From positions 6,580 to 30,579 of the forward strand of contig NZ_JAKNTA010000013.1 of assembly GCF_022288725.1 (NCBI RefSeq): a stretch of DNA of 24,000 nt, given 5' to 3'. The notes beneath the pieces were generated by a model. That model did no database searches. It was given only the letters and a program-made list of their open reading frames with translations, and was not told the origin of the DNA. The position numbers and the translations under genes were made by a program. Positions 1 to 15,799 of the stretch are shown here, one piece after another; positions within the stretch are counted from its first letter, which is position 1, and every line of letters begins with the position of its first letter. The DNA is from Kitasatospora sp. A2-31 (GTDB taxonomy: Bacteria > Actinomycetota > Actinomycetes > Streptomycetales > Streptomycetaceae).

Positions 1-785
1 AGGCGATGACCGCGCACCGCCACCAGGCAGCCGCGCTGCGCTTCGTCCACGAGGGCACCGGCGCCTGGACGATCGTGGACGGCCAGAAGCTCAAGGTCGG
101 GCCGCGCGACTTCGCGATCACGCCCAACAACACCTGGCACGAGCACGGCAACGAGGCCTCGGACGAACCGGTGATCTGGCAGGACGGACTGGACATCCCG
201 CTCGTCAACGCCCTCGACGCGGGCTTCTACGAAGTCCACCCCGAGCTCTACCAGCAGCCCGGCACGGTGGTGAACTCCTCGCTGCTCAGCTACGCCGGCA
301 CCCTGCTGCCGTACGGGGTCGAGAAGTGGAGCCGCCCGTACTCCCCGCTGCTCGGCTGGCCCTGGGAGCCCAGCTACGAGGCGCTCCGCCGGCTGGCCCG
401 CGCGGGCGAGGGATCCCCGTACGACGGCGTGATCATGGAGTACGCCAACCCGGTCACCGGCGGTTCGGTGATGCCGACCATGAGCGCCCACCTGCAACTG
501 CTGCGCCCGGGCCAGGCCACGCTGGCGCACCGGCACACCGGCTCGGTCGTCTACACGGCGGCCAAGGGGCGCGGCGTCTCGGTGATCGCCGGGCAGCGCT
601 TCGCGTGGCAGCAGGGCGACGTCTTCGTGGTCCCGTCCTGGGCCTGGCACGAGCACGCGAACGCCGACCAGGGCGAGGACGCCTGCCTCTTCTCGTTCAA
701 CGACTTCCCGGTGATGCGCTCGCTCGGCATGTACCGCGAGGAGGCCCACCCGGACAACGGCGGCCACCAGGTCGTCCTCTCGTAA
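1..785 (+). CDS. gentisate 1,2-dioxygenase (bicupin), 5'-truncated by window edge
   Basis: The frame of ORF 6..785 is open to the window edge. The translation shows two cupin modules with metal-ligand motifs ('NTWHEHGN', 'LAHRHTGSVVY', 'SWAWHEHAN') and 'VIWQDGLDIPLVNALDAGFYE', typical of gentisate dioxygenases. TAA stop at 783-785. Confidence 0.85.
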   Translation, partial: AMTAHRHQAAALRFVHEGTGAWTIVDGQKLKVGPRDFAITPNNTWHEHGNEASDEPVIWQDGLDIPLVNALDAGFYEVHPELYQQPGTVVNSSLLSYAGTLLPYGVEKWSRPYSPLLGWPWEPSYEALRRLARAGEGSPYDGVIMEYANPVTGGSVMPTMSAHLQLLRPGQATLAHRHTGSVVYTAAKGRGVSVIAGQRFAWQQGDVFVVPSWAWHEHANADQGEDACLFSFNDFPVMRSLGMYREEAHPDNGGHQVVLS

Positions 786-796
786 GGAGCCCTTCG

Positions 797-1732
797 ATGC
801 ACCTGCTCAGCTTCCGTACGGGCGGCGGCGGCACGCCCCGCCTCGGCGCACGCAGCGGTGAGCGCGTGGCCGACCTGGTGGCGCTCGCCACCGCGGCCGG
901 CGCCCACCTGCCCGGCGATCTGGCCGCGCTGATCCGGGCCGGCGAACCCGCCCTGGCCACCGCCCGAGCGCTGCTGGCCACTGCTCCGGCCGACGCCTGG
1001 CTACCGCTCTCCCGGGTCACACTCTGTGCGCCGCTGCGCCCCGGCAAGATCATCGGCGTCGGCCTCAACTACGTCGAGCACGTCGAGGAGTCGCACCGCT
1101 CGCTCGACACCGAGCGCGAACTGCCGGACCGGCCGGTGCTGTTCGGCAAACCGGCCACCGCCGTCACCGGCCCCGGCGGGCCGATCCTGCACAACGCCGA
1201 CCTGACCAAGCAGCTCGACTGGGAGTGCGAACTGGCCGTGGTGATCGGCCGGACGGCTCGCCGGGTCACCGAGGCCGACGCGCTGCGGCACGTCTTCGGC
1301 TACAGCATCGTGAACGACGTCAGTGCGCGTGACCAGCGTCGCTCCGGGCAGTGGTTCTTCTCCAAGGGCCAGGACTCCTACTGCCCGTTCGGACCGGTCG
1401 TGGTCACCGCCGAGGAGATCCCGGACCCGCAGAACCTCGACCTCTCGCTCAAGGTCAACGGCGTGACCAAGCAGGACTCCAACACCCGCCACATGCTCTT
1501 CGGCGTCGCCCGGCTGATCGCCGACATCTCCTCCGGCATGACCCTGGAGCCCGGCGACGTGATCGCCACCGGTTCGCCGTCCGGCGTCGGGGCCGGCCTC
1601 GTCCCGCCGCAGTTCCTGCAGCCCGGCGACGTGGTCGAGGCCACCGTCGAACGGATCGGCACGCTCGCCAACCCGGTCGTCGACGCCCGTGACCACGACC
1701 CCCGTGACCACGGCGATGGGGCGGGTGCATGA
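797..1732 (+). CDS. fumarylacetoacetate hydrolase (FAH) family hydrolase; candidate fumarylpyruvate or maleylpyruvate hydrolase
   Basis: ATG at 797 is preceded by AAGGAG (784-789). FAH-family blocks are present: 'KIIGVGLNYVEHVEE', 'PVLFGKPATAV', 'LDWECELAVVIG', 'VFGYSIVNDVSARD', 'GDVIATGSPSGVG'. The longer ORF-track start at 326 overlaps the dioxygenase and is Arg/Pro-rich junk. Confidence 0.85.
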   Translation: MHLLSFRTGGGGTPRLGARSGERVADLVALATAAGAHLPGDLAALIRAGEPALATARALLATAPADAWLPLSRVTLCAPLRPGKIIGVGLNYVEHVEESHRSLDTERELPDRPVLFGKPATAVTGPGGPILHNADLTKQLDWECELAVVIGRTARRVTEADALRHVFGYSIVNDVSARDQRRSGQWFFSKGQDSYCPFGPVVVTAEEIPDPQNLDLSLKVNGVTKQDSNTRHMLFGVARLIADISSGMTLEPGDVIATGSPSGVGAGLVPPQFLQPGDVVEATVERIGTLANPVVDARDHDPRDHGDGAGA

Positions 1733-2634
1733 CCACCCACCGGGCCACCCACCGGACCACCCACCGGACCACCTACCGGATCGGCCAGATCGTCCCGAGC
1801 TCCAACGTCACCATGGAGACCGAGGTGCCGGCCCTGCTGCGGGCGAGGGAGCGGGTCGCCCCCGAGCGCTTCACCTTCCACTCCAGCCGGATGCGGATGA
1901 CCAGGGTCACGCCCGAGCAACTGCGCACGATGGACGCCGACTCGGACCGCTGCGCGCTCGAACTCTCCGACGCCCGGGTCGACGTGCTCGGCTACGCCTG
2001 CCTGGTGGCCGTCATGAGCAACGGGCCCGGCTACCACCGGGAGTCCGAGCGGCGGCTGCACCGGCGCACCGTCGAGAACGGCGCACCGGCGCCGGTGGTG
2101 ACCAGCGCGGGCGCCCTGGTGGCCGGGCTGCACGTCCTCGGGGCGAAGAAGGTCGCGCTGGTCGCGCCCTACCTGCGACCGCTCGCCCGGACGGTGGTGG
2201 ACTACCTCGCGCACGAGGGCATCACGGTGACCGACCACGCTGCCCTGGAGATCCCCGACAACCTGGCGGTCGCCGCCCACGACCCGGCCCGGCTGCCCGG
2301 GATCGCCGCCCGCCTGGCGCACGCCGAGGCGGACGCCGTGGTGCTCTCCGCCTGCGTGCAGATGCCCTCGCTGGCGGCCGTCGAGGAGGCCGAGCAGCGG
2401 CTCGGCAAACCGGTGGTCTCCGCCGCGATCTGCACCGTCCACCAGCTGCTGCGCGCGCTCGGGCTGCCCGCCTTCGCCCCCGGCGCGGGGGCGCTGCTCT
2501 CCGGCGCCTACCAGGCGAGCACGTCACCGGCCCCGGCTCCGGCGCCCACCGCGCCGTTCCGGCCCCCACCGGCCGTACCGCAGCCGTCCGCCGTCCCGCC
2601 GTCCGGACCACCTGGCGGCGCTCCGACAGTATGA
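1729..2634 (+). CDS. maleate cis-trans isomerase family protein (Asp/Glu racemase superfamily) with N-terminal THR-repeat and C-terminal Pro-rich extensions
   Basis: ATGA start/stop overlap with the upstream FAH gene (ATG 1729, TGA 1730-1732). The core 'YRIGQIVPSSNVTMETEVPALL' plus two candidate catalytic Cys contexts ('LGYACLVAV', 'VVLSACVQMPS') match the maleate isomerase/arylmalonate decarboxylase family. Confidence 0.8.
   Translation: MTTHRATHRTTHRTTYRIGQIVPSSNVTMETEVPALLRARERVAPERFTFHSSRMRMTRVTPEQLRTMDADSDRCALELSDARVDVLGYACLVAVMSNGPGYHRESERRLHRRTVENGAPAPVVTSAGALVAGLHVLGAKKVALVAPYLRPLARTVVDYLAHEGITVTDHAALEIPDNLAVAAHDPARLPGIAARLAHAEADAVVLSACVQMPSLAAVEEAEQRLGKPVVSAAICTVHQLLRALGLPAFAPGAGALLSGAYQASTSPAPAPAPTAPFRPPPAVPQPSAVPPSGPPGGAPTV
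1732..1779 (+). repeat. 4 x 12-bp in-frame tandem repeat (ACCACCCACCGG-like) encoding TTHR/ATHR/TTHR/TTYR
   Basis: Direct reading gives accacccaccgg | gccacccaccgg | accacccaccgg | accacctaccgg immediately after the ATG. An adjacent 15-bp-period repeat of cgtgaccacg lies at 1688-1697 and 1703-1712, at the end of the upstream gene. Confidence 0.9.
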
Positions 2635-2704
2635 TCACGCCGGACGGCCGCGGTCGCCGGCGCCGCCGCGCGCCCCGCGAGGCCACGACGGGAGGAGGGC
2701 CGCC

Positions 2705-3547
2705 ATGCCGGAGAACACGCCACGCCCCAGCTCCCTGATCCACACGATCTACGGCGAGTTCGTGCGGCGGCTCGGCGGCTGGATCTCGATAGCCGACCTG
2801 ATCGCGCTGATGGCCGAACTGGACGTCGACGCACCCGCCGTCCGGTCGGCGATCTCGCGGCTGAAGAAGGCCGGCACCCTGCTGCAGGAGCGGCGCGCGG
2901 GCACCGGCTACCGGCTGAGCCCGGCGATGGGCCCCGTCTTCGACGAGGGCGACCGCCGGATCTTCCACAGCCTGGCGCCCGCCGAGCTCGCCGACGGCTG
3001 GGTGGTCGCGGTCTTCTCCGTCCCCGAGTCGGAGCGGGCCAGCCGCCACCAGCTGCGGTCGCGGCTGGGCTGGCTCGGCTTCGGCAACGCCGCCCCCGGT
3101 GTCTGGCTGGCGCCCGCCCGGGTGCTGCCGGACGCCCGGCGGCTGCTGGAACGGCTCGGGCTGAGCGCGTACGTCCACCTCTTCCTGTCCGAGTACGCGG
3201 GGTTCGCCGAACTGCGTTCGGCGGTCGGCTCCTGGTGGGACTTCCCGGCGATCGAGGCGCAGTACGCCGAGTTCACCGCGGCCTGGGGGCAGGTGGCCGA
3301 CGGCCTGCGCCACGCGCGGATCGAGCCGGTCGAGGCGTTCCGCGCGTACGTCCCGATGCTCACCCAGTGGCGCCGGCTGCCCTACCTCGACCCGGGGCTG
3401 CCGGCGCCGCTGCTGCCGCCGGAGTGGAACGCCGTCGCGGCCCGCGCGGTCTTCACCGAACTGCACGGGCTGCTCGCCGAACCCGGTCTCCGGCACGTCG
3501 AGCAGCTCACCGGCCTGTCGCGCCCGGCGCTCGACGCCCGGCCGTAG
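2705..3547 (+). CDS. PaaX-family transcriptional regulator
   Basis: ATG 2705 is preceded by GGGAGGAGGG. The N-terminal wHTH-like 'SLIHTIYGEFVRRLGGWISIADLIALMAELDVDAPAVRSAISRLKKAG', the middle block 'WVVAVFSVPESERASRHQLRSRLGWLGFG', and the C-terminal 'YVPMLTQWRRLPYLDPGLP' are characteristic of PaaX-like repressors. Confidence 0.85.
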   Translation: MPENTPRPSSLIHTIYGEFVRRLGGWISIADLIALMAELDVDAPAVRSAISRLKKAGTLLQERRAGTGYRLSPAMGPVFDEGDRRIFHSLAPAELADGWVVAVFSVPESERASRHQLRSRLGWLGFGNAAPGVWLAPARVLPDARRLLERLGLSAYVHLFLSEYAGFAELRSAVGSWWDFPAIEAQYAEFTAAWGQVADGLRHARIEPVEAFRAYVPMLTQWRRLPYLDPGLPAPLLPPEWNAVAARAVFTELHGLLAEPGLRHVEQLTGLSRPALDARP

Positions 3548-3615
3548 CGCCGCGTCCCCGCCCGCCGGCCCGATCCCGCTGCCCGACCAGACGCCGTGAC
3601 CGAGGAACTGCCGCC

Positions 3616-5229
3616 GTGACCGACCACGCCCCCGCCGACCTGCTGATCCGGTCCGGCGCCGTCCACACGCTCGTCCCCGGCGAGGCGCCGCGCCGTGCGC
3701 TGGCCGTCACCGGCGACCGGATCACCGCGCTGTCCGCCTCGGCGGCCGGCCTGGACCACCTGATCGGCCCGGGGACGGAGGTGCTGGACCTGCCCGGCGC
3801 CACCGTGCTGCCCGCCTTCGACGACACCCACACCCACCTGATCCTGGCCGCGCACAGCGTCCACGACGTGCCGGTCCACCGGGCCGGGGACCTCGGCGAG
3901 TTCCTCGGCCTGATCCGTGAGCGGGCGGCCCGCACGCCCGCAGGTCAGTGGATCCGCACGACGATCAACTGGCAGGAGGTCAACCTCGCCGAACAGCGCC
4001 TGCCCCGCACCGAGGAGCTGGACGCGGCCACCGACCGGCACCCGGTGCTGGTGCGGCGCGGCGCCTACAACATGGTCCTCAACACGCCTGCGCTGCGGCT
4101 GGCCGGCATCACCGCCGCCACCGAACCCCCGCCCGGCGGCGTGATCGAGCGGGACGATCAGGGCCGGCTGACCGGCCGGCTGGTCGACAAGGCGGTCGCA
4201 CTGGCCGAACGGGTCCTGCCGCGCCCCGCGCTCGCCGATCGCATCGACGGCCTGCGAGCCGCGTCCGCCGACTACGCCGCGACCGGGATCGGTACCGTCC
4301 GCGACTGCCTCGTCCCGGTGGAGGACCTCGACGTGCTCCGCGGGGCCCGGCAGGCCGGTGCGCTGAGCGTGCGGGTGCGTGCCCTGGTCTCCGGCTTCGG
4401 GGCCCGTACGCCGGCGCAGGTGGACGAACTGCTCGACCGGATGGAGCCCTGGCGCGCCGAGGGCGATGCGTGGCTGAGCGTCTGGGGCGTCAAGTTCGGC
4501 ATCGACGGCGGCATCGAGGCGGGTGCGCTGGACGAGCCGTACGAAGGCCGCCCGTGCTACCACGGCACCCTGCTCTGGGAGCCGGAGGAGCTGGCCGCGG
4601 CGGTCGACCGGGTGGTCGCGCGCGGCTGGCGGGTCGGCGTGCACGCCTGGGGGGACCGCGGCCTCCGCACGTTGCTGGACGTCTTCGAGCAGGTGCTCGG
4701 GGGGCGCCCCGGCCTGGCTCCGGGCACCCTGGTGGTCGAACACGGCGGCCTGGCCCGGCCCGACCAGCGAGCGCGTGCGATCGCGCTCGGCATCCCGGTC
4801 ACCGTCCAGCATCCGCTGCTGCACGATGCGGCGACGGCCCAGATCCGGGCCTGGGGCGCCGAGCGGGTGCGCGGGATCTTCCCGCTGCGCGAGTGGCTGG
4901 ACGAGGGCGCGCTGCTGGCGGCCGGCTCGGACTTCCCCGTCGGGCCCTACGGGGCGATGGTCTCGGTCTGGGGCATGACGACCCGGCAGACCGTGGCCGG
5001 CGCACAGGGCGCCGAGCACGCGATCACCCGGGCCGAGGCGATCGCGCTGCACACCGTCGACGCCGCCCGCCTGCTCGGCGAGAGCGGCACGCGCGGGAGC
5101 CTGCGCCCCGGCGCGCTGGCCGACCTCACCCTCTGGCCCGCCGACCCGCTGACCTGCCCGCCCGACGAGCTGGCGGAGCTGAGGCCGCTGCGCACCGTCC
5201 TGGGCGGCCGGACGGTCCACCGGGCCTGA
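3616..5229 (+). CDS. metal-dependent amidohydrolase (Amidohydro_3 / YtcJ-like)
   Basis: GTG 3616 follows GAGGAA (3602-3607). Motifs include 'ATVLPAFDDTHTHL' (HxH metal motif), 'GVKFGIDGG', 'VGVHAWGDR' and 'LAAGSDFPV'. The ORF-track N-terminal extension from 3235 overlaps the paaX-like gene and is Arg/Pro-rich. Confidence 0.8.
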   Translation: MTDHAPADLLIRSGAVHTLVPGEAPRRALAVTGDRITALSASAAGLDHLIGPGTEVLDLPGATVLPAFDDTHTHLILAAHSVHDVPVHRAGDLGEFLGLIRERAARTPAGQWIRTTINWQEVNLAEQRLPRTEELDAATDRHPVLVRRGAYNMVLNTPALRLAGITAATEPPPGGVIERDDQGRLTGRLVDKAVALAERVLPRPALADRIDGLRAASADYAATGIGTVRDCLVPVEDLDVLRGARQAGALSVRVRALVSGFGARTPAQVDELLDRMEPWRAEGDAWLSVWGVKFGIDGGIEAGALDEPYEGRPCYHGTLLWEPEELAAAVDRVVARGWRVGVHAWGDRGLRTLLDVFEQVLGGRPGLAPGTLVVEHGGLARPDQRARAIALGIPVTVQHPLLHDAATAQIRAWGAERVRGIFPLREWLDEGALLAAGSDFPVGPYGAMVSVWGMTTRQTVAGAQGAEHAITRAEAIALHTVDAARLLGESGTRGSLRPGALADLTLWPADPLTCPPDELAELRPLRTVLGGRTVHRA

Positions 5230-5253
5230 CACCCGCCAGGCCACGGCCGGGCC

Positions 5254-5286
5254 GCCCTCCGGCGCTGCGGCTCCGCCCCGGAGGGC
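5254..5286 (+). terminator. candidate hairpin terminator after the amidohydrolase gene
   Basis: gccctccgg (5254-5262) pairs with ccggagggc (5278-5286), giving a 9-bp GC stem with a 15-nt loop. It lies 25 nt after the stop and has no U-tract. Confidence 0.35.
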
Positions 5287-5305
5287 CGCATCCCGGACGG
5301 GTGCT

Positions 5306-5336
5306 TCATCGGGTTGTCATCGGGCACTGGCACGGT
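5306..5336 (+). promoter_or_regulatory. SARP-box-like element: TCATCGG(5306-5312)-N4-TCATCGG(5317-5323)-N7-CACGGT (-10-like, A2/T6)
   Basis: Two identical heptamers (octamers TCATCGGG) have 11-bp periodicity and lie 75-105 nt upstream of the cutinase-like start codon. The 20-mer 5303-5322 is 19/20 identical to 6228-6247. Confidence 0.45.
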
Positions 5337-5410
5337 CGTCCCGTGACCTCGGCCGAGCGCGTGCCGCACCCGAGAGCGGGCGCGCGGGCCGACTGCATGG
5401 GGAGGAACGA

Positions 5411-6079
5411 ATGCGAGCACGACGGATCGCGGCCGCGGCAGCCGGAATCCTGCTGACGGTCGGGCTGACAGCGGCACAGGGGGCCACGGCACAGGGGGCG
5501 CCCGCGCGCGTGACGGCTCCGTGCGAGGGCACCTACACGATCGTGGTCGGGGGCACCGGCAGCTCGTGGAACAACGACGGGTTCACCGGCAACATCCAGC
5601 AGCACGTCGGGTATCCCACCCAGATCCCCAACGGTGCCAGCACGCGGGCCGGCGTCAACGAGCTGAACCGGCTGGTCCGCGACCAGCGCGCCGCGTGCCC
5701 GGGCCAGCACGTCAAGATGGCCGGGTACTCGCTGGGAGCCGGTGTGGTGCACGTCTGGGTCACCGAGAACTGGCAGACCTTCGACAACGTCAACGCCATC
5801 CTCGTCTCGGACCCCAAGCGCCAGGGCCCGCCCGGGGCCAACGGCGGGGCCGTGCCGTTCGGCGGCATCATCGGAGCTCCGCTCGCGGGTGCCGACAGGT
5901 TCTTCGGCAACGTGCCCGTCAAGACGATCTGCCACTGGGACTACGTCTGCGACGAGTCCGCCGGGATCTGGACCTACCCGTACAACCACGTCCACAACTA
6001 CCCCGAAGACTTCAACATGGATCACCACAACGACAGCGCCAACGAGGTCTGGTACAACGGCGCCTGGTACCCCGCGTAG
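5411..6079 (+). CDS. secreted cutinase-family (cutinase/PE-PPE-like) serine hydrolase
   Basis: ATG 5411 follows GGGGAGGA. The N-terminal signal peptide is 'MRARRIAAAAAGILLTVGLTAAQGATAQG'. Cutinase-like order of blocks: 'CEGTYTIVVGGTGSS', 'ACPGQHVKMAGYSLGAGVV' (GYSxGA nucleophile elbow), 'AILVSDPKR', 'KTICHWDYVCDES'. Confidence 0.75.
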   Translation: MRARRIAAAAAGILLTVGLTAAQGATAQGAPARVTAPCEGTYTIVVGGTGSSWNNDGFTGNIQQHVGYPTQIPNGASTRAGVNELNRLVRDQRAACPGQHVKMAGYSLGAGVVHVWVTENWQTFDNVNAILVSDPKRQGPPGANGGAVPFGGIIGAPLAGADRFFGNVPVKTICHWDYVCDESAGIWTYPYNHVHNYPEDFNMDHHNDSANEVWYNGAWYPA

Positions 6080-6120
6080 GCAAGAGGACGCCCGTCGGCC
6101 GGGTCCGTGGCCGCGCACCT

Positions 6121-6168
6121 TCACCGCCCGTCGGCGACCGGGAACGTCCGGCCGCCGACGGGCGGTGA
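6121..6168 (+). terminator. strong stem-loop terminator after the cutinase-like gene
   Basis: tcaccgcccgtcggcg (6121-6136) is the perfect reverse complement of cgccgacgggcggtga (6153-6168). Four more pairs inside (6138-6141 with 6148-6151) leave a 6-nt loop. It is followed by gccgtttcc. Confidence 0.7.
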
Positions 6169-6230
6169 GCCGTTTCCGCCGCCCGGCGGCTAAGGAGCCC
6201 GGCGGCTCCGGAGCCCCGGCCCGCGACGCT

Positions 6231-6261
6231 TCATCGGGATGTCATCGACCCTTCCTAGCCT
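6231..6261 (+). promoter_or_regulatory. SARP-box-like element: TCATCGG(6231-6237)-N4-TCATCGA(6242-6248)-N7-TAGCCT (-10-like)
   Basis: Same architecture and spacing as 5306-5336. TAGCCT fits the Streptomyces TAnnnT -10 and lies 48 nt upstream of the acylase ATG. It sits downstream of the strong terminator at 6121-6168, so this is an independent transcription unit. Confidence 0.5.
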
Positions 6262-6308
6262 GGCCGTGTTCAGCCAAACGACCGGACCGCAGGGGGAAGG
6301 ACGACTCG

Positions 6309-8810
6309 ATGGCACGGAGCAGACTCAAGGCGAGGCTGCCGATCGCGGTCATGGCCGCGACGGCACTGATGGGCACGGTGGCGGCAGCCGGGACACCGGG
6401 CACCGGGACCCCGGACGACAGGCGCCCGGCCGCCGTACGGGTGCCGGCGCCGGACCGACCGACGATCCGGTACACCGAGTACGGGATCCCGCACATCATC
6501 GCCTCGACCATGGAGGGACTGGGCGAGGGGTACGGCTACGCGGCGGCCAAGGACAACATCTGCACCCTGGCCGACACCTACCTGATGGTCAACGCCCAGC
6601 GGTCCCGCTACCTGGGGCCCGACGGCAGGGCGAGCCCCGGCCAGAACCAGAACAGCACCAGCAATCTCAACAGCGACCTCTACTTCCAGCGGATGAACGA
6701 CAACCGGGTGGTGGAGCGGCTGCTCGACCAGCCCGCCCCCAACGGGCCGGAGCCGGAGGTCAAGGAGGGCATCCGCGGCTACGTCCGGGGGTACAACCGC
6801 TACCTGGCCGAGACCGGCGTGAACAACCTCTCCGACCCGGCCTGCCGGGGCGCGGCCTGGGTGCGGCCGATCACCGAGCTGGACGTCTACCGGCACGCGC
6901 ACGCCGAGATCGTCATGGGCAGCGCCGATCCGCTGCTGGACGGCGAGGTGACCGCCGCACCCCCGGGGGCGCCGGGCGCCGCGCCGTCCCCCGCCGCGGC
7001 GCCGGCGGTCTCCCCCGAGGAGACCGCGGCGAAGATCCGCGAGGCGATGGCCGCGAGCCGGCAGCAGGGCAGCATGGGCAGCAACGCCCTGGCGGTCGGG
7101 TCGCAGGGGGTGGCCCCGGGCACCGGCACCAGCATGCTGCTGGCCAACCCGCACTTCCCGTGGCAGGGCAAGAACCGGATGTGGCAGAGCCAGCTGACGA
7201 TCCCGGGGAGGATCAACGTCTCCGGGGCCAGCCTGCTCGGACTCCCGGCGGTGAACATCGGGCACACCGACGACGTCGCCTGGAGCCACACCGTCGCCAC
7301 GGTGGCCCCGTTCGGGCTGTTCGACGTGCAGGTGGACCCGCTGCACCCGACCAGCTACCTGGTGGACGGCGGCTGGCAGCAGATGACCTCGCAGCAGGTC
7401 GGTGTCGACGTGCTGCAGCCGGACGGCTCCGTCGGCAGGGTCACCAGGACGCTGTGGTCCACCCGCTACGGCCCGATCACCACCTCGGTGCTCGGCGTCG
7501 CCCTGCCCTGGGTGGTGAGCGCCCACGCGGTGCGCGACGCGAACATGGACAACCTGCGGGCGTTGAACACCTGGTTCCACCTCGACCAGGCCAAGGACGT
7601 CGGCGACGTGGTGAGCACCCTGGAGACCACGCAGGGCGTGCCGTTCTTCAACACGGTCGCCTCCGACCGCAAGGGCAACGCGCTGTACGCGGACATCCAG
7701 GCCGCCCCGAACATCACCGATGCGCACGCGCAGTCCTGCCTGACCCTGACCGGCCAGGTGCTGTTCAACCAGCAGCTGCGGCTGCCCAACGTGCCGCCGG
7801 TCTCCGTCTTCGACGGCAAGCGCAGCGAGTGCGACTGGCCAAACGACCCGAACGCCGTCGCGCCGGGACTGCTGGACCCGCACAAGCAGCCGCGCCTGAT
7901 CCGGTCCGACTTCGTGGGCAACGCCAACGACAGCCCCTGGCTGGCCAACCCCGAGCAGCCGCTGTCCTTCCCCCGGGTGATGGGCGACAGTGCGGCGCCC
8001 CGCTCGCTGCGCACCCAGGAGCTGGTCCTGACCGCGCAGAACCGGATCAGCGGCAGTGACGGTCTGCCGGGCCGCGGCTTCACCCCGGAGACCATGCGGC
8101 AGTTGCTGTTCGCCGACGGCAGCAGGGCGGCCGACCTGGCCCTCGACGCCACCGTGACCACGTGCCGCAGCCAGCCCTTCGGGCTCGTCCTGGTGGACGG
8201 CAACCTGGTCGACGTGAGCGAGGCCTGCCCGGTCCTGGCCGCCTGGAACCACAAGTACACCGCGGACAGCCGGGGGTCCTGGCTGTTCGAGAACCTCTGG
8301 TACCTCCTGACCAACGGCCAGGCGATCGAGAAGCTGCCGTGGCGGGTGCCCTTCGATCCCAAGGACCCGGTGCACACGCCCAACTCGCTGGACCCCGGGA
8401 GCTCCGCCGTCCGTGACGCGCTCGGCCGGGCCGTCCTCGCGCTGCGCAAGGCGGGCGTTCCGCTGAACGCGCCGCTGTCGGACGTCCAGAGGATCACCCG
8501 CAACGCCGAACGGATCCCGATCCACGGCGCGATCCACGAACTGGGCGTGCTGAACGTGGTCACCCCCGGAACGGTCGACGGAAAGCTGGACATCACCTTC
8601 GGCTCCAGCTTCGTCCAGGAGACGCGGTTCACCGCCGACGGCCCGCCGCAGGCCGCCTCGCTGCTGGCCTACTCCCAGTCGGCGAACCCGAACTCGCCCC
8701 ACTACTCGGACCAGACCAGGCTGTTCTCGGCCGGTCAGTGGGTGACCGAACGCTACACCGAGGAGCAGATCGCGGCCTCACCGGCGCTGGAGATCAAGGT
8801 CCTGGACTGA
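6309..8810 (+). CDS. secreted Ntn-hydrolase of the penicillin amidase (S45) family: AHL acylase / aculeacin-A (lipopeptide) acylase-like
   Basis: ATG 6309 follows GGGGGAAGGA. Signal peptide 'MARSRLKARLPIAVMAATALMGTVAAAG'. Alpha-subunit start 'IRYTEYGIPHIIAS...GYGYAAAKDNICTLAD'. An Ala/Pro-rich spacer leads to 'QQGSMG|SNALAVGS' (beta-subunit N-terminal Ser nucleophile, codon at 7080-7082), then 'LLANPHFPW'. Confidence 0.85.
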   Translation: MARSRLKARLPIAVMAATALMGTVAAAGTPGTGTPDDRRPAAVRVPAPDRPTIRYTEYGIPHIIASTMEGLGEGYGYAAAKDNICTLADTYLMVNAQRSRYLGPDGRASPGQNQNSTSNLNSDLYFQRMNDNRVVERLLDQPAPNGPEPEVKEGIRGYVRGYNRYLAETGVNNLSDPACRGAAWVRPITELDVYRHAHAEIVMGSADPLLDGEVTAAPPGAPGAAPSPAAAPAVSPEETAAKIREAMAASRQQGSMGSNALAVGSQGVAPGTGTSMLLANPHFPWQGKNRMWQSQLTIPGRINVSGASLLGLPAVNIGHTDDVAWSHTVATVAPFGLFDVQVDPLHPTSYLVDGGWQQMTSQQVGVDVLQPDGSVGRVTRTLWSTRYGPITTSVLGVALPWVVSAHAVRDANMDNLRALNTWFHLDQAKDVGDVVSTLETTQGVPFFNTVASDRKGNALYADIQAAPNITDAHAQSCLTLTGQVLFNQQLRLPNVPPVSVFDGKRSECDWPNDPNAVAPGLLDPHKQPRLIRSDFVGNANDSPWLANPEQPLSFPRVMGDSAAPRSLRTQELVLTAQNRISGSDGLPGRGFTPETMRQLLFADGSRAADLALDATVTTCRSQPFGLVLVDGNLVDVSEACPVLAAWNHKYTADSRGSWLFENLWYLLTNGQAIEKLPWRVPFDPKDPVHTPNSLDPGSSAVRDALGRAVLALRKAGVPLNAPLSDVQRITRNAERIPIHGAIHELGVLNVVTPGTVDGKLDITFGSSFVQETRFTADGPPQAASLLAYSQSANPNSPHYSDQTRLFSAGQWVTERYTEEQIAASPALEIKVLD

Positions 8811-8854: not shown

Positions 8855-9937
8855 GTGACGAGGACATCGAGCCGGTGGCGCAGGGTGGTGGCCCTGGTGG
8901 CCGCCGTCCTGGCGACGGCCACCACGGCGGGTGCCGCACGTGCCGCCGCCGGCACGGGGGCGCCGCCGCCGATGGCGAACGGGTTCGGCCTGACCCAGGT
9001 CGAACCCGCCGTGGGCGGTCCGACCGACTTCTACCTGACCGTGACCACTCCCGAGGTCACCGGCCGGCACCACATCAAGATCATCCTGCCGAGCGGGTAC
9101 TACGACGACCCGACCAGGCGCTACCCCGTGCTGTACTTCCTGCACGGCTCACCCGACGACCCCGTCCAGCAGAACTATCCGGCGCTGACCATGTCCCACT
9201 CGATGATCACCGTCATCCCGGACGGCGGCGCCCGGGGCTGGTACGCCAACTGGCTCGACCAGAACACCCGGCTGGGAGCCCAGAACTGGGAGAACTTCCA
9301 CCTCCAGCAGGTGATCCCGTTCATCGACGCCAACCTGCGGACCGTCGCCGCCAAGAAGGCCAGGGCCGTCGCGGGCGTCTCCATGGGCGGCTTCGGCGCC
9401 CTCCACTACGCCCAGGACCACCCGGAACTGTTCGGCCAGACCGCGTCCCTGTCGGGCGACATCGATCTGTCGGCCGACTCCATGGACCTGAGGCTGGCCG
9501 TCGTCGCCTCCCTCATCGACGCCCAGGGCGCGCTCTGCGGCTCGTCCTCCGGATTCTGCGGCGACCCCGCGAACGACCCGTACAAGCCCGGCGTGGACAG
9601 CGACGCCCTGTTCGGCTCGCCCTACCCGGTGTTCAACGTGGACTGGCGTTGGAACGCGGCCGACCCGTCCCAGCACATGGACAGGCTCGCCGGGGTCGGG
9701 GTCTCCATCTACGTGGGCAACGGACGCGGCGTGCCCACCGACCTGGAGTTCTGGCTCGAAGGCGCGTCCAAGCACGTCAAGGACCGCATGGACGCCCTGG
9801 GCATGTCCTACCACTACGTCGACTACGGCGACGGCTCCGGCTGGGGCACCCAGTGCAACGGCGGCCACAACGCCGGCTGCTGGGAACAGGACCTCCGGGA
9901 CCTGATCCCCCGGCTCGAACGGGCCTTCGCCTCCTGA
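8855..9937 (+). CDS. secreted esterase (esterase D / antigen-85 mycolyltransferase-like alpha/beta hydrolase)
   Basis: GTG 8855 follows GAGGGGA. An alternative ATG at 8810 overlaps the acylase stop (TGATG). Signal peptide 'RWRRVVALVAAVLATATTAGAARAAAG'. Motifs: 'YPVLYFLHGS', 'VIPDGGARGWYANW', and 'AVAGVSMGGFGALHYA' (GxSxG). Probably co-transcribed with the acylase. Confidence 0.8.
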   Translation: MTRTSSRWRRVVALVAAVLATATTAGAARAAAGTGAPPPMANGFGLTQVEPAVGGPTDFYLTVTTPEVTGRHHIKIILPSGYYDDPTRRYPVLYFLHGSPDDPVQQNYPALTMSHSMITVIPDGGARGWYANWLDQNTRLGAQNWENFHLQQVIPFIDANLRTVAAKKARAVAGVSMGGFGALHYAQDHPELFGQTASLSGDIDLSADSMDLRLAVVASLIDAQGALCGSSSGFCGDPANDPYKPGVDSDALFGSPYPVFNVDWRWNAADPSQHMDRLAGVGVSIYVGNGRGVPTDLEFWLEGASKHVKDRMDALGMSYHYVDYGDGSGWGTQCNGGHNAGCWEQDLRDLIPRLERAFAS

Positions 9938-9960: not shown

Positions 9961-10008
9961 GGTCGGCCCAGGCCTCACCGCGCGGCCGCGGTGAGGCCGG
10001 GGCCGACC
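9961..10008. terminator. bidirectional hairpin between the convergent esterase (+) and LuxR-SARP (-) genes
   Basis: ggcctcaccgcg (9971-9982) pairs with cgcggtgaggcc (9987-9998) around a 4-nt loop. The stem is extended by ggtcggccc (9961-9969) pairing with gggccgacc (10000-10008). This gives about 21 bp with one mismatch and overlaps the last codons of the minus-strand gene. Confidence 0.55.
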
Positions 10009-11048
10009 TCGTCCCCGCTCAGGATCAGCCGGTGCGTCTGCCGCAGCAGCCGGCTCGGCGCAACCCCCAGGTCGTCGGCCAGCCGGCGGCGGGTGCGGTC
10101 GAACACGGCCAGGGCGTCGGCCTGTCGGCCGCTGCGGTACAGCGCGCGCATCAGCATCGCGGCCACCGGCTCGTTGAGGGGGTGCTCCGCGGCCAGGGCG
10201 AACAGCTCGGCCGCCGCCTCGCAGCACTGGCCCAGACCCAGCTGCCACTCCAACTTCCGCTGGGCGACGGCGATCCTGCGCTCGGCGAGCCGCAGCCGCT
10301 CCAACTCTGCCAGCGGGCCGGGCAGTCCGGCCAGGAGCTCGCCGCGGAACAGGTCCAGCGCCCGCGTGCAGAGGCGGACCGCCTCGGTCGGGTCGCCCGC
10401 CCGGTGGGCCGCCCCGGCGTCGGTGACCAGGCGCTCCATGCGCGCCAGGTCCACCTCGACCGCACCGGGCACCAGCCGGTATCCGCACCGGTCGTGCTCG
10501 ATCACCGAGTCCGGGCCGTCCCCGATGCGCAGGGTCTTGCGGAGGCGGTAGATGTGGACCGGTACCACGTTCGTGACCGGCTGATCCGAGCCCCAGACGC
10601 CGTCCAGCAGTTCCTGCTGGCTGACGGTCCGCCCCGCGTGCAGCGCCAGTGCCGCCAGCACGGCTTGCTGGCGCAGGTGTCCCAGCTCCAGGGACCGCCC
10701 GCCCCATCGGGCCCGCAGCGGGCCGAGTACGGAGATCTGCACCTTCGGTCCTGCCGTCGGGCGGACGGCGCTGCAAGGAAGCGACCCCGCTGCCGCCCGC
10801 GTGCGGGGGCCGCGGCCCGGGGCGACCACTCCGCAGTCGAAGGCGTGGACGATGGCGGCGGCCCGGTCGCGCAGCCCGAGCTTCCCGAGGATCCGCGCGA
10901 CGTGCCCGGCCACGGCCTCCTCGGAGATGGCGAGGACGGCGGCGATCTCGTCGTCCCGCAGGCCGCAGCCGACCGCGTGGAGCACGTCGCGCTCCCGGGG
11001 CCCGAGCACGACGGCGCTCGGCCGGCTGGTGGTGGCGTTCGTCGGCAT
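9975..11048 (-). CDS. hybrid transcriptional regulator: N-terminal LuxR/GerE-type HTH + SARP (OmpR-type winged helix + BTAD)
   Basis: ATG 11048 is preceded by AGGGAG. Residues ~15-75, 'LGPRERDVLHAVGCGLRDDEIAAVLAISEEAVAGHVARILGKLGLRDRAAAIVHAFDCGVV', form a GerE HTH. 'VQISVLGPLRARWGGRSLELGHLRQQAVLAALALHAGRTVSQQELLDGVWG...IYRLRKTL...GYRL' is the SARP wHTH. 'VDLARMERL...ALDLFRGELLAGLP...LMRALYRSGRQADALAVFDRTRRRLADDLGVAPS' is the BTAD. Confidence 0.8.
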   Translation of the reverse strand: MPTNATTSRPSAVVLGPRERDVLHAVGCGLRDDEIAAVLAISEEAVAGHVARILGKLGLRDRAAAIVHAFDCGVVAPGRGPRTRAAAGSLPCSAVRPTAGPKVQISVLGPLRARWGGRSLELGHLRQQAVLAALALHAGRTVSQQELLDGVWGSDQPVTNVVPVHIYRLRKTLRIGDGPDSVIEHDRCGYRLVPGAVEVDLARMERLVTDAGAAHRAGDPTEAVRLCTRALDLFRGELLAGLPGPLAELERLRLAERRIAVAQRKLEWQLGLGQCCEAAAELFALAAEHPLNEPVAAMLMRALYRSGRQADALAVFDRTRRRLADDLGVAPSRLLRQTHRLILSGDEVGPGLTAAAR

Positions 11049-11116: not shown

Positions 11117-11139
11117 CCCGGAATCCGGAACGATCCGGA
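11117..11139 (-). promoter_or_regulatory. clustered TCCGGA palindromes (minus strand: TCCGGAT-cgt-TCCGGAT-TCCGGG) upstream of the LuxR-SARP gene
   Basis: atccgga occurs at 11123-11129 and 11133-11139 (10-bp period), with a third tccggg-type copy adjacent. The cluster lies 70-90 nt upstream of the ATG at 11048. Function is unknown. Confidence 0.2.
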
Positions 11140-11172: not shown

Positions 11173-11254
11173 TCAGGAGCAGCGGCAGACCCCTGCGGCC
11201 ACCCGGTGAGGACCGCCGGCAGACCCCTGCGGCCACCCGGTCAGGAGCAGCGGC
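11173..11254. repeat. about 2.4 copies of a 34-bp tandem repeat spanning the kinase stop codon and the kinase/SARP intergenic region
   Basis: Unit 1, 11173-11206: tcaggagcagcggcagacccctgcggccacccgg. Unit 2, 11207-11240: tgaggaccgccggcagacccctgcggccacccgg. Partial unit 3, 11241-11254: tcaggagcagcggc, which is the stop plus last codons (..GRCS*) of the kinase. Confidence 0.9.
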
Positions 11255-12608: not shown

Positions 12609-13376
12609 CTACCTTCGGGGCTCGGCGGCTTCGGGGCGCGGCAGGAGCGCCAGGTGCTCCTCACGAACGATGCCGAACTTCAGGGCGAGGCCCACGACGG
12701 CCTCGCGCTTCCCGCTGCGGCGGTCCGCGCGGCCCGCGTCGTCGGGCAGGTCGATGCGGAGCTTCTCGTCGGCGAGGTAGTCGAGGTGCGAGCTGACCGC
12801 GCGGGCGGTGAGCCGGGCGCAGGCGGGGTGGTCGCGCAGCCGCGCGACCACCTGGAGAGTGGTGGGTACGGCGGCGGGGGAGCGGTCACGCAGCCACGGC
12901 TCGCAGAGCGCGACCAGGACCAGGAAGTAGGTGGCGGTCTCGTCCAGCGAGTACGCCGTCATGGTACGACTCTCCCAGGAGCCGCCACCGCGGGCGTCCG
13001 GATCCAGGTAGACGTGGTCGGGCGCGAACACCTGGAAGGACAAAGGCGTTTCACGTCGTGAGGGCAGCACCACCCGGGAGAACTCGAACGGGATCGGCGC
13101 GCCGATGCGCCGCGGCGGCACCCGCAGGTACTCGCCGGCGCCCTCCGGGTTCTCCACCAGATAGGCGTGGGTGCTGCTGAGGTTGCTCAACTGCCAGTGG
13201 TCGTCGGTCGCGTGGATCTCGCCGGCGAGGCGGGACACCGTCTCGTCGCCGAGTCGGAGCTCCACCGGCGTGCCGGCGGAGCCGCGGCCGAAGCGCGCCC
13301 GCTCACCCGGACCGAGCCGCAAGGTCACCGCGTCCTGGCCGTTCCCCTCCGGCAGGTGGACGAGAATCCCGCTCAC
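12609..13376 (-). CDS. FHA-like domain protein (partly degenerate pThr-binding motif) with uncharacterised C-terminal helical domain
   Basis: GTG 13376 follows GGAGGA. 'RFGRGSAGTPVELRLGDETVSRLAGEIHATDDHWQLSNLSSTHAYLVEN' follows the FHA pattern GR...SR.H...S.NG..vN, with His->Ala and Asn->His substitutions. The stop is 6 nt before the kinase ATG, so the two form an operon. Confidence 0.55.
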   Translation of the reverse strand: MSGILVHLPEGNGQDAVTLRLGPGERARFGRGSAGTPVELRLGDETVSRLAGEIHATDDHWQLSNLSSTHAYLVENPEGAGEYLRVPPRRIGAPIPFEFSRVVLPSRRETPLSFQVFAPDHVYLDPDARGGGSWESRTMTAYSLDETATYFLVLVALCEPWLRDRSPAAVPTTLQVVARLRDHPACARLTARAVSSHLDYLADEKLRIDLPDDAGRADRRSGKREAVVGLALKFGIVREEHLALLPRPEAAEPRR

Positions 13377-15355: not shown

Positions 15356-15799
15356 CGTGACCTCCTGAGGGCGCGTGACGGCCATCTGTCCGGACCGCCG
15401 GGAGTGGAGCGGTTGGGACGTTAGCCACGCACCGCGCGGCGCAGAACCCGGAACCATCCGGACTGACGGGCGCGGGACCGGCCGAGGAGACTGTCGGGCG
15501 GACCGTCTGTCCTGCGGGCGGGGGGTGTGCCGGACAGCGACCGTCATGGGTCGTCAGCAGGAGTCGAGGAGGGGCCGACCGAGCGCGACGAGCCGCGGAC
15601 GGGGACGGAGAGCACCGCGGCCCGGCCGAGACGGCCGCACACCGGCCGGATCGGGGCAAGCCGCTACGCGGCGTCGCCGGGCTACCCGGCAGGTCGTCCT
15701 GCCGAGGGGCCTGTTGAGTGCCCGTCCGGCGCGGCGGGTGGTCGCCGAGGCCGCCGGGTGAGGCGCCGCTGCCGGCCGCTCGGAGGGCGGACGGCAACC

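Follow-up and report, generated by a model that had tools for sequence, protein, structure and literature searches.

SARPs are regarded as the switches of antibiotic gene clusters and serve as markers for them. The heptamers of three such regulators, ActII-ORF4, DnrI and RedD, are of the TCGAG type. These three regulators combine an OmpR-type domain with a BTAD, use 11-bp-phased heptamers that lie over the -35 region, and are encoded next to their targets, inside antibiotic clusters whose biosynthetic genes they activate (PMC10972967). In described SARP sites the direct repeats are 11 or 22 bp apart, and 8 bp separate the 3' repeat from the -10 element (PMC10936776, PMC11301090). Among the structures matched by the regulator considered here, AfsR of S. 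coelicolor is the only SARP-domain regulator for which an RNA polymerase-promoter complex has been solved (8HVR, 8JKE, 8K60). At its target promoter, afsS, the box is 22 bp long, consists of two 11-bp direct repeats and has its centre near -29.5. A distance of 8 bp separates its 3' heptamer from the -10, and its upstream repeat stands in place of the -35; the -10 is CACTGT and the upstream repeat contains TTCAGC (PMC10936776, PMC11301090). The described SARP architectures are small, medium with NB-ARC, large with TPR, and SARP-LAL (PMC10972967, PMC12224297), and a SARP gene found away from any cluster is at present interpreted as a beacon for a cryptic one (PMC12224297).

The locus studied here lies in a 24-kb stretch of DNA (the window, taken at its full length) from Kitasatospora sp. 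A2-31. The source was recognized from the regulator, which is 100% identical to a protein of this strain; the cutinase protein of the window has no database record. It shares the promoter layout of these systems and differs from them in its regulator and in its target genes. Its features are the following.

5303-5324, + strand: cutinase-promoter box, SARP-type, two 11-bp direct repeats, GCTTCATCGGG and TTGTCATCGGG
5331-5336, + strand: -10-like hexamer CACGGT of the cutinase promoter, 8 bp after heptamer 2
5411-6079, + strand: secreted cutinase-family protein of 222 aa (PF01083; homologues), with an N-terminal signal peptide (N-terminal hydrophobic segment)
6121-6168, + strand: long GC-rich hairpin that separates the cutinase unit from the acylase unit (fold of -56.6 kcal/mol; z = -5.7 relative to shuffles)
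6228-6249, + strand: acylase-promoter box, SARP-type, two 11-bp direct repeats, GCTTCATCGGG and ATGTCATCGAC
6256-6261, + strand: -10-like hexamer TAGCCT of the acylase promoter, 8 bp after heptamer 2
6309-8810, + strand: secreted S45 Ntn-hydrolase (PF01804, Penicil_amidase), a PvdQ/MacQ-like long-chain N-acyl amidase
8855-9937, + strand: third hydrolase gene, a PF00756 esterase with an SRWRR twin-arginine-like signal peptide
9975-11048, - strand: putative cognate regulator, 357 aa, with an N-terminal GerE/LuxR helix-turn-helix, a low-complexity linker, an OmpR-type winged helix and a BTAD (Pfam)
11124-11139, - strand: TCCGGATCGTTCCGGA element, about 80 nt upstream of the regulator start codon, candidate operator
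11241-12602, - strand: receptor-type Ser/Thr protein kinase (Pfam kinase domain), with a single transmembrane segment and about 105 aa of extracytoplasmic tail
12609-13376, - strand: conserved cytoplasmic protein of 255 aa, with a weak FHA-fold match (PF16697, E = 0.006, below cut-off)

The earlier note reported two near-identical 20-bp elements in front of the two secreted-hydrolase genes. These elements, gcttcatcgggttgtcatcg at 5303-5322 and gcttcatcgggatgtcatcg at 6228-6247, are identical at 19 of 20 positions, and a repeat search of the window pairs them as one family (95% identity). They are also A/T-rich for the host DNA, as the note had claimed (55% G+C against 73.5% for the window), and the 11-bp phasing of their TCATCG heptamers is borne out: direct reading of the sequence gives TTCATCG at 5305 and GTCATCG at 5316 in the first copy, and TTCATCG at 6230 and GTCATCG at 6241 in the second. 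In both copies the complete box is a 22-bp pair of 11-bp direct repeats with the core [T/G]TCATCG. The exact pattern TCATCG-N5-TCATCG occurs twice in the 24-kb window, at 5306-5322 and 6231-6247, each time on the + strand, upstream of a gene and in the sense orientation. Scored with a box matrix, the cutinase copy reaches 32 bits and the acylase copy 34 bits; a scan of the window with this matrix finds no match beyond these two, including before the esterase or the regulator gene, and a search of the 24-kb window for a third, degenerate copy, with three mismatches allowed, returns 18 hits for 17.3 expected, which is background. Such a repeat could be a chance one, or the remnant of a local promoter duplication, devoid of regulatory meaning. 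The GC-rich DNA of the window holds many imperfect chance repeats of 15-30 nt, only two copies of the box are present, and since chance GC-rich repeats of like length are so frequent, a 20-nt repeat is unremarkable on window evidence alone. Against this reading, shuffles predict 0.10 exact matches for the two found, and two matches occur in 0 of 100 shuffles; that the box is not a chance repeat is shown, at the level of sequence, by its conservation across genomes described below.

Each 22-bp box ends 6 bp before its -10-like hexamer, and CACGGT and TAGCCT are both found where the earlier note had placed them. The 3' heptamer is thus exactly 8 bp from the hexamer on the coding strand in both window copies, as in the afsS promoter. 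The likeness to afsS extends to the sequences themselves, as the repeat core begins with TTCA in both systems, and the hexamer of the cutinase-promoter orthologues is mostly CACTGT, the same as the afsS -10 (PMC10936776). In the acylase-promoter orthologues this hexamer is mostly TAGCGT. The spacing is fixed and equals the published SARP spacing: an nAnnnT hexamer is found at one exact offset in 125 of the 132 promoter-type sites of related loci, and in at most two at any other offset. A consensus scan of 5000-6500 finds no sigma-70 consensus promoter, in agreement with a poor -35 that is overlapped or replaced by the repeat. If the hexamers are -10 elements, the upstream repeat would occupy -40 to -30 and, by analogy with the AfsR/afsS geometry, transcription is predicted to start at about 5343 for the cutinase-like gene and at about 6268 for an acylase and esterase operon. 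The box could instead be no activator site but what an alternative (ECF-type) sigma factor recognizes in the -35 region, since it is conserved, keeps a constant distance to a -10-like element and is accompanied by no canonical -35. We regard this as very improbable, because a tandem heptamer with one-helical-turn spacing is the signature of two protomers and not of a single sigma region 4, because the hexamers vary by target class yet all fit the housekeeping TAnnnT/CAnnGT, and because the window contains no sigma or anti-sigma gene.

The comparative evidence comes from 80 genomes or loci sampled solely by similarity to the regulator (71-94% identity, 1.53 Mb in total), which were scanned with the box matrix at a cut-off of at least 18 bits, with dinucleotide shuffles and the reversed matrix as controls. 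The scan yields 134 sites, against 0-2 in the dinucleotide shuffles and none with the reversed matrix, although these site counts are not independent events because most of the 80 loci are orthologous; the truly independent lines of evidence are the different target families and the four or five distant genera. All 134 sites, like the two window copies, have direct heptamers spaced by 11 bp. At least one site of 18 bits or more is present in 73 of the 80 loci, and those site-less loci that were inspected carry weaker variants about 0.7-0.8 kb downstream of the aligned region of the regulator gene. The box is not scattered inside coding DNA: 124 of the 134 sites lie at most 140 nt upstream of a codon-biased open reading frame on the same strand. 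Conservation in orthologous intergenic regions, which the earlier note had singled out as informative, is found before both the cutinase and the acylase genes in Kitasatospora and Streptomyces, and before the cutinase gene in Saccharothrix, Amycolatopsis and Actinomadura. In total, the box precedes cutinase orthologues in more than 40 genomes, and it also precedes acylase orthologues. Before the cutinase orthologues of five genera the flanking sequences diverge, while the box and the 8-bp gap to the nAnnnT hexamer are kept. The related sites hardly vary at T6 and G8 of the heptamer. The idea of a chance or duplicated repeat is already effectively refuted by these sequence comparisons, and we give it a negligible probability: the box is kept across genera and the flanking DNA is not, 134 sites are found in related loci where about one is expected, their offset to the -10 is fixed, and the related loci are not duplicates of one sequence, given the 71-94% identity of their regulators and their different gene orders.

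The identities proposed earlier for the genes concerned hold in Pfam: Cutinase for 5411-6079, Penicil_amidase for 6309-8810, and GerE, Trans_reg_C and BTAD for 9975-11048. The acylase scores 562 bits with the NCBIfam PvdQ model, below the equivalog cut-off, and its best PDB matches are 5c9i and PvdQ. The esterase gene, absent from the earlier note, starts 45 nt past the acylase stop codon and has no box of its own in the window, for which reasons it is probably co-transcribed with the acylase gene; standalone PF00756 esterase genes of other genomes do have their own box. At least five unrelated families are preceded by the box, namely the cutinase, the S45 acylase, the PF00756 esterase, a PLL lectin-domain protein and a second cutinase type. 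Boxed operons of Actinomadura and Kutzneria include beta-lactamase-fold genes, and the boxed target in Amycolatopsis benzoatilytica is a WXG100/ESX-type operon. The earlier proposal of a small regulon, in which two promoters are controlled by the adjacent SARP regulator, is strongly supported by the comparative evidence as regards its principle but not its size. Each computational check suggested in the note gave a favourable outcome, but the regulon would also include the esterase here and, elsewhere, the PLL lectin-domain protein, the second cutinase type and others. In contrast with ActII-ORF4, DnrI and RedD, the regulator is not in a secondary-metabolite cluster within the 24-kb window, which contains no biosynthetic genes (PKS, NRPS or other); its conserved neighbours are secreted hydrolases.

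A SARP regulator is indeed encoded near the hydrolase genes, as had been claimed, but it lies on the minus strand, convergent with them (its stop codon is 38 bp from that of the esterase gene), and it is not a plain SARP, as it carries an additional N-terminal LuxR-type helix-turn-helix. Its SARP module scores 52 bits for Trans_reg_C and 133 bits for BTAD, which places it in the SARP family by its domains, and among solved relatives the SARP domain of AfsR is the best match (E = 7e-47), followed by EmbR (E = 4e-24). AfsR, in contrast, is a 993-aa NOD-TPR protein, unlinked to its targets, that controls afsS and secondary metabolism, whereas the present regulator has 357 aa and its N-terminal LuxR helix-turn-helix, is associated with the box core TCATCG and adjoins secreted-hydrolase genes. 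Upon realignment the recognition helix reads VVPVHIYRLRK, compared with AAVRTYASRLRK in AfsR; the Arg of the AfsR helix that contacts a T is conserved. This helix, NVVPVHIYRLRK, also resembles that of PhoB, which is TVDVHIRRLRK, and the regulator matches the PhoB DNA-binding domain with E = 7e-5. Wherever the box is kept, the recognition helix of the regulator does not vary, as seen in the 62 sampled orthologues retrieved with a sequence pattern. The GerE helix-turn-helix is complete (Pfam positions 2-57 of 57), the protein has no ATPase, and with this extra domain ahead of the SARP module it fits none of the described architecture classes. SARP-LAL regulators (PimR, SanG, FilR) come close in that they associate a SARP module with LuxR-family-related sequence and bind heptameric direct repeats (PMC5930380, PMC10972967). 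Their SARP module is N-terminal, however, and followed by a C-terminal LAL-like ATPase half without the LuxR helix-turn-helix (PMC10972967), whereas here a complete GerE helix-turn-helix precedes the SARP module and there is no ATPase. The subfamily gives 579 database clusters at E <= 1e-20. Relatives with receiver, GerE and SARP domains also exist, and in some Amycolatopsis a receiver domain is present together with a histidine kinase. A 358-aa GerE protein at one related locus (L006), considered as a diverged orthologue, was rejected, as its GerE domain is C-terminal and it shows no similarity to the regulator.

Members of this subfamily adjoin boxes in five genera, Kitasatospora, Streptomyces, Actinomadura, Amycolatopsis and Kutzneria. 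The order and orientation of genes around the regulator are highly variable, and the linkage of box and regulator persists: the box stays with the regulator despite numerous rearrangements, also in genera with different target genes. In Actinomadura the orthologue is a medium-type SARP, with NB-ARC and without GerE, that is 54% identical over the SARP module and adjoins two boxed promoters, and the orthologues of Kutzneria and Amycolatopsis benzoatilytica adjoin boxes that precede entirely different genes. Cutinase and regulator are both present in A. albispora, A. magusensis and S. luteireticuli. On the other hand, the box might be bound by another OmpR-type protein that recognizes tandem repeats, such as PhoP, AfsR or another response regulator, the SARP gene being linked for other reasons or its product only co-regulating. 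The 11-bp direct-repeat layout is common to the whole OmpR/PhoB family, PHO boxes being likewise made of 11-bp direct repeat units with a 7-nt conserved core that overlaps the -35, and the core TTCATC/TGTCATC resembles two PHO cores, GTTCACC of S. coelicolor and CTGTCAT of E. coli (PMC4415409), with four to five of seven positions matching the Streptomyces core when core sequences are compared. It is also like the afsS repeat with TTCAGC, and AfsR and PhoP are known to have overlapping sites. The second DNA-binding domain of the regulator counts against binding by the adjacent SARP, as do the lack of a box at the regulator's own promoter and boxed cutinase genes without a linked SARP gene: in S. 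fradiae and Saccharothrix no regulator is found within 10 kb of the boxed orthologue, and in A. marina none is nearby.

We nevertheless consider a different binder unlikely. A global regulator leaves unexplained why boxes cluster within a few kb of this SARP subfamily (73 of 80 loci), and why they do so in Actinomadura, Kutzneria and A. benzoatilytica with unrelated targets; the almost invariant T6 and G8 of the heptamer correspond to C/Y in the PHO core; and A. marina does encode the SARP orthologue, on another contig. PhoB and PhoP are moreover receiver-domain response regulators without a BTAD, which act globally and control phosphate scavenging, and the box does not precede phosphate-scavenging genes: it is found before genes for a cutinase-like protein, a PvdQ-like acylase, an esterase and a lectin-domain protein. 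From the resemblance of the cores, AfsR or PhoP may still cross-recognize the box.

Altogether, we find it highly probable that the two boxes are the operators of activator-dependent promoters and that they are bound by the adjacent LuxR-HTH-SARP protein encoded at 9975-11048. The box, located 6 bp upstream of the -10-like hexamer, would stand in for the -35 element, and its most likely binder would be this LuxR-HTH-SARP fusion with its AfsR-like SARP module. The cryo-EM structures of AfsR at afsS suggest, by analogy, how this could work: each repeat would be occupied by one of two neighbouring SARP protomers, both on the same face of the DNA, and the pair would carry region 4 of sigma-HrdB and contact the alpha-CTD and the beta flap; we infer that RNA polymerase would thereby become able to use a promoter without a usable -35. 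The regulon so controlled would consist of secreted proteins, mostly acyl and ester hydrolases, and not of an antibiotic cluster.

How the regulator gene itself is controlled, and by which signal, can be approached from its neighbourhood. Autoregulation through the TCATCG box was rejected, as a matrix scan of the window and related loci finds no box upstream of the regulator or of the kinase operon, hence none at the regulator's own promoter. An exact TCCGGATCGTTCCGGA is carried by 55 loci, and every one of them has it just upstream of the regulator orthologue; six of these 55 list a second match, which is elsewhere in the locus in three cases and is the same site on both strands in the other three. 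This element is possibly an operator for the regulator's own GerE helix-turn-helix. The neighbouring receptor-type kinase (hydrophobic segment at 323-345) is linked to the regulator in 29 of 80 loci, and the 255-aa FHA-like protein, always paired with the kinase, co-occurs in 34 of 80. This arrangement resembles EmbR-PknH of Mycobacterium tuberculosis and AfsK-AfsR, in which a SARP-type regulator is likewise associated with a Ser/Thr kinase and an FHA-type element. EmbR, however, has the FHA domain within the regulator itself; here the FHA-like protein would be separate, the kinase and its partner accompany the regulator in only 29-34 of 80 loci, and phosphorylation is hypothetical. By analogy with AfsK/AfsR and PknH/EmbR, the kinase is a possible signal input to the SARP: the signal would enter through the receptor Ser/Thr kinase and the FHA-like protein or, in some Amycolatopsis, through a receiver domain and a histidine kinase.

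These elements can be assembled into a wider proposal, whose chances of being right or wrong seem to us evenly balanced: an undescribed and widely conserved actinomycete regulon, in which a LuxR-HTH-SARP with two DNA-binding domains controls a mobile set of secreted proteins, with TCCGGATCGTTCCGGA-type autoregulation and a kinase/FHA-like input. Activation would be the task of the SARP module, acting on the TCATCG repeats, and autoregulation that of the LuxR helix-turn-helix, acting on a separate element in the regulator's own promoter. The set would comprise the cutinase-like protein, the PvdQ-like N-acyl amidase, the esterase, beta-lactamase-fold enzymes and the PLL lectin-domain protein. 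In some Amycolatopsis the regulator would take the form of a complete receiver-LuxR-SARP response regulator, served by a histidine kinase of its own. The regulon could plausibly act as an inducible response outside the cell, directed at acylated molecules or lipid surfaces that belong to other organisms, for instance acyl-homoserine lactones, lipopeptides or cutin-like polyesters.

The cis-element is of a known kind. This subfamily of regulators appears to be undescribed, and so does its regulon of secreted proteins, most of which are hydrolases, with no biosynthetic gene cluster in view, as no prior description of this regulator type or of a SARP-hydrolase link was found in the literature searched, which was of limited coverage. 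A whole SARP subfamily appears to be dedicated to secreted proteins, mostly hydrolases. If true, this would widen the roles of SARPs and call for caution against inferring a gene cluster automatically from a SARP gene. The compact and well-defined operator and promoter (22-bp box, 6 bp, -10), with its many natural variants, would be well suited to the study of SARP specificity, for which a recognition helix unlike that of AfsR is also of value. A further benefit would be a way to study how actinomycetes control their PvdQ-type acylases and cutinase-like enzymes. Such enzymes draw interest in work on quorum quenching, the deacylation of lipopeptides and the degradation of polyesters.

Several RNA features were considered around the two promoters. 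The 5' leader of the cutinase mRNA is conserved in sequence from Kitasatospora to Amycolatopsis and absent in some Streptomyces; a structured leader was rejected, as RNAalifold gives almost no consensus structure, and a hairpin drawn by hand, with one pair showing double changes, is within the shuffle range and has no covariation support. A terminator upstream of the cutinase box (5228-5302) was also discarded, the fold being no better than shuffles (z = -0.8). In the 5000-6500 region a consensus scan finds no canonical terminator, and an Rfam scan gives only sub-threshold matches of microRNA models to the 6121-6168 hairpin, and no relevant known RNA element. This hairpin had been described as a terminator separating the cutinase and acylase units. 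The structure is real, but it has no T-run and the terminator scan makes no call, and it is likely a terminator or an insulator without a U-tail. An equivalent hairpin, with different stem bases, is present at a related locus (L001).

The 20-mers at 5303–5322 and 6228–6247, which an earlier note had proposed from the sequence alone as parts of two SARP-box promoters controlled by a nearby regulator, are 19/20 identical as claimed (they also form repeat family D9), and both the 11-bp phasing of their TCATCG cores and the hexamers CACGGT (5331–5336) and TAGCCT (6256–6261) are borne out by the sequence of 5100–6500. We delimit the element as a 22-bp box of two 11-bp direct repeats with the core (T/G)TCATCG (5303–5324 and 6228–6249). 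The window has exactly two occurrences of TCATCG-N5-TCATCG, both on the + strand, against 0.10 expected, and 0/100 shuffles reached two; with 3 mismatches allowed, the whole window yielded only background. Judged from the window alone, the 20-nt repeat is suggestive and not compelling, since GC-rich repeats that arise by chance are plentiful. The genes of the window are the following.

1–3547: aromatic-catabolism genes and a PaaX-like regulator (Pfam)
2705–3547: the PaaX-like repressor gene, preceding the Amidohydro_3 gene (Pfam)
ending at 5229: amidohydrolase (Amidohydro_3; Pfam)
5411–6079: cutinase-family gene (Pfam)
6309–8810: S45 Ntn-hydrolase, closest to PvdQ/MacQ acylases (Pfam and homology)
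8855–9937: PF00756 esterase, likely start GTG 8855, 45 nt past the acylase stop (Pfam)
9975–11048, minus strand, convergent with the hydrolases: regulator of 357 aa, GerE + Trans_reg_C + BTAD (Pfam)
11241–12602, minus strand: Ser/Thr kinase; single transmembrane segment, extracytoplasmic tail (Pfam, hydrophobic segment)
minus strand, convergent with the hydrolases: 255-aa protein with a weak FHA-fold match (Pfam)

Signal peptides are present in all three hydrolases; those of the cutinase and the acylase look Sec-type, and the esterase carries an SRWRR motif ahead of its hydrophobic segment (8855–8960), suggesting export by the twin-arginine route. The acylase and esterase genes are probably co-transcribed, given the 45-nt gap and the fact that a scan with a matrix built from box instances found no box between the acylase stop and the esterase start. 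A very stable hairpin (6121–6168, -56.6 kcal/mol, z = -5.7) lies between cutinase and acylase. No biosynthetic genes were found by Pfam in the window.

Conservation was checked on contigs that encode cutinase homologues (53–91% identity). A Kitasatospora locus with the gene order of the window has the box ahead of both cutinase and acylase, and a Streptomyces locus in which acylase and esterase are inverted and the regulator directly follows the cutinase has three boxes, one each before cutinase, acylase and esterase. The cutinase orthologues of S. fradiae, Saccharothrix, Amycolatopsis marina and Actinomadura viridis lie in unrelated neighbourhoods and keep the box (TTTCACCGCGATGTCATCGG, TTTCATCAGGAATTCATCGC, TGTCATCAGGATTTCATCGG and TGTCATCGAAATTTCATCGG, respectively), followed 8 bp on by CACGGT, TACGGT, TAGCGT or TAACGT, within flanking DNA that cannot be aligned. 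In about 160 kb of these contigs the matrix found no further site above 20 bits, with one exception, an Actinomadura site before a beta-lactamase-fold gene that adjoins a SARP gene. The cutinase 5' leader (5337–5410) is itself conserved from Kitasatospora to Amycolatopsis (GGTGACCTCGGCCGA..GCGTACCGCATCGGA..GCGG in the alignment of orthologous leaders) and could form a GC-rich hairpin, for which the same alignment gave no convincing covariation; several Streptomyces cutinase genes have a short leader without this sequence.

The link to the regulator is seen in 80 Kitasatospora and Streptomyces loci picked only by similarity of the SARP module (71–94% identity), most of them orthologous, so that site counts are not independent. 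Their 1.53 Mb contain 134 sites scoring 18 bits or more, whereas five dinucleotide shuffles gave 0–2 and the reversed matrix none. At least one such site is present in 73/80 loci, and the inspected loci without one have weaker variants about 0.7–0.8 kb downstream of the aligned region of the regulator gene. A codon-biased ORF starts on the same strand within 140 nt downstream of 124 of the 134 sites; two weaker matches fall inside another gene. The classes of downstream genes have no common sequence except the box, and each has its own -10-like hexamer: CACTGT for the cutinase (43 assigned sites and a few more wrongly assigned to acylase), TAGCGT for the acylase (about 40), TACGTT for the esterase when it stands alone (8), TACTGT or TACCGT for a secreted 553-aa protein that carries PLL beta-propeller lectin repeats (12), and TAACGT for a second protein of the cutinase/PE-PPE type, about 265 aa long (9). 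A hexamer with A2 and T6 lies exactly 8 bp past the second heptamer in 125/132 sites, and at any other offset from -4 to +4 in 0–2. These comparative data exclude a chance repeat. Gene order and orientation around the regulator vary greatly, cutinase being linked to it in 49/80 loci, acylase in 42/80, esterase in 48/80 and the pair of Ser/Thr kinase and FHA-like protein genes in 29–34/80. In several genomes two boxes stand back to back, some only about 18 bp apart, between divergent genes, either cutinase and acylase or cutinase and the PLL lectin-domain protein (loci L038 11556–11613, L056 11556–11613 and L063 11555–11612; also L047, L061, L064, L067 and L071); we predict that these are compact bidirectional activator-dependent promoter regions.

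The earlier note was right in calling the box a SARP-type cis-element; it is a textbook SARP box, of a known kind. SARP promoters have direct repeats 11 or 22 bp apart, a 3' repeat 8 bp from the -10, and a box that overlaps a poor -35; the afsS promoter has a 22-bp box from -40 to -19, whose upstream repeat contains TTCAGC, and CACTGT as its -10 (PMC10936776, PMC11301090). At the cutinase promoter, box 5303–5324 would be followed after six bp by CACGGT at -12 to -7, with a start near 5343, and at the acylase promoter box 6228–6249 and TAGCCT would place the start near 6268. Since both map onto the SARP/afsS geometry, AfsR-like activation is likely: two protomers would sit side by side at the -35 position, hold sigma region 4 ('sigma adaptation') and touch the alpha-CTD and the beta flap. 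That the box is instead the -35 element of an alternative sigma factor is unlikely, in view of the tandem duplication of the heptamer and of -10 hexamers of the housekeeping type. Some sites (L043 11547–11577, L044 13902–13932, L053 12650–12669, L073 12914–12933 and L084 6995–7025) have three 11-bp-phased repeats, the third being TTCAGCG or TCCAGCG, which recalls the TTCAGC of afsS; the genes downstream are small or of no recognized identity.

The regulator matches a Kitasatospora sp. A2-31 protein at 100% identity and belongs to a family of 579 clusters (E <= 1e-20). Its best solved relative is the AfsR SARP domain (E = 7e-47), followed by EmbR. Aligned on the RLRK motif, its recognition helix NVVPV(H/Y)(I/V)YRLRK is invariant in 62 sampled orthologues, themselves retrieved by pattern, and nearly so in Actinomadura. 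The AfsR helix is AAVRTYASRLRK; the equivalent of AfsR R92, which contacts the first T of each repeat (PMC10936776), is conserved, whereas AfsR T88 is a Val in the regulator, which is compatible with a DNA specificity related to that of AfsR yet distinct. The regulator's helix is also like the one in PhoB. The E. coli PhoB box has the core CTGTCAT (PMC4415409). The only serious rival is binding of the box by another OmpR-type protein, PhoP or AfsR, whose boxes look like this one and which are known to share sites; this would leave unexplained why the box is so closely and repeatedly linked to this SARP subfamily, and none of the targets is a phosphate enzyme. Co-regulation by PhoP or AfsR is possible. 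The complete N-terminal GerE helix–turn–helix, joined by a low-complexity linker, places the regulator outside the four described SARP classes, small, medium, large and SARP-LAL (PMC10972967, PMC12224297). In the literature searchable here we found neither this architecture, nor its wide conservation, nor a SARP regulon that comprises secreted proteins (mostly hydrolases) and not a biosynthetic cluster, which is the regulon that we predict for this subfamily. Roles for the GerE domain and for the kinase pair are conjecture.

Searching with the SARP module from Actinomadura retrieved regulator orthologues from several Pseudonocardiales (58–69% identity). One is encoded by Amycolatopsis marina, where it and the boxed cutinase lie on separate contigs, which answers for this species the objection of a box without regulator; cutinase and regulator also occur together in A. 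albispora, A. magusensis and S. luteireticuli, to judge from contigs of equal length in the cutinase and regulator searches. The Kutzneria box scores 24 bits, has TACCGT at the expected offset and lies 2.4 kb from the regulator, the boxed genes being a 474-aa gene of no known identity and a beta-lactamase-fold gene. In A. benzoatilytica a 31-bit box (L089 15570–15589) precedes a WXG100/EspG/EspC (ESX-type) operon, 4 kb from the regulator; shuffles give about 0.005 expected matches of at least 22 bits per 21-kb locus. The A. benzoatilytica regulator (483 aa; receiver + GerE + Trans_reg_C + BTAD) is by its domain composition a complete response regulator joined to the SARP module; its gene follows and overlaps a HisKA_3 histidine kinase gene (region L089 8838–11452), and several other receiver-GerE-SARP proteins of about 480 aa exist. 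Across genera the box appears to follow the regulator gene, with the boxed cutinases of S. fradiae and Saccharothrix, which have no regulator gene within 10 kb, as unexplained cases.

The regulator gene has a conserved element of its own, TCCGGATCGTTCCGGA (11124–11139, minus strand), followed after about 23 nt by a TACCGT/TACCTT hexamer and after about 80 nt by the start codon. Exact TCCGGA-N3-TTCCGGA is present in 55/87 loci, in all 55 just upstream of the regulator orthologue; six of the 55 have a second match, three elsewhere in the locus and three being the same site on both strands. This element could be the operator of the regulator's own GerE helix–turn–helix. In the regulator subgroup that accompanies the second cutinase type, and in the orthologues of Amycolatopsis and Kutzneria, the TCCGGA repeat is absent and the palindrome ACCGGCC-N4-6-GGCCGGT lies upstream of the regulator gene (at about 9550–9650 in L043, L044, L046, L051, L053–L055, L058, L059, L070, L073, L075, L079, L081 and L084; also L088 9890–9925 and L090 9890–9935), preceded by GACTCTAGCGCGG in the Streptomyces subgroup and in Kutzneria. 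Neither was found upstream of the GerE-less Actinomadura orthologue. A near-copy of the TCCGGA element of the window, with one mismatch, TCCGGATGGTTCCGGG (15447–15462, minus strand), sits some 4 kb from it, close to small ORFs and to a gene for an MFS transporter.

The PaaX-like repressor and Amidohydro_3 genes (2705–5229) are directly upstream of a module that holds a penicillin-amidase-family gene, and PaaX controls penicillin G acylase in E. coli. This closeness looks coincidental, because the upstream block is not conserved in a related Kitasatospora locus (L001).
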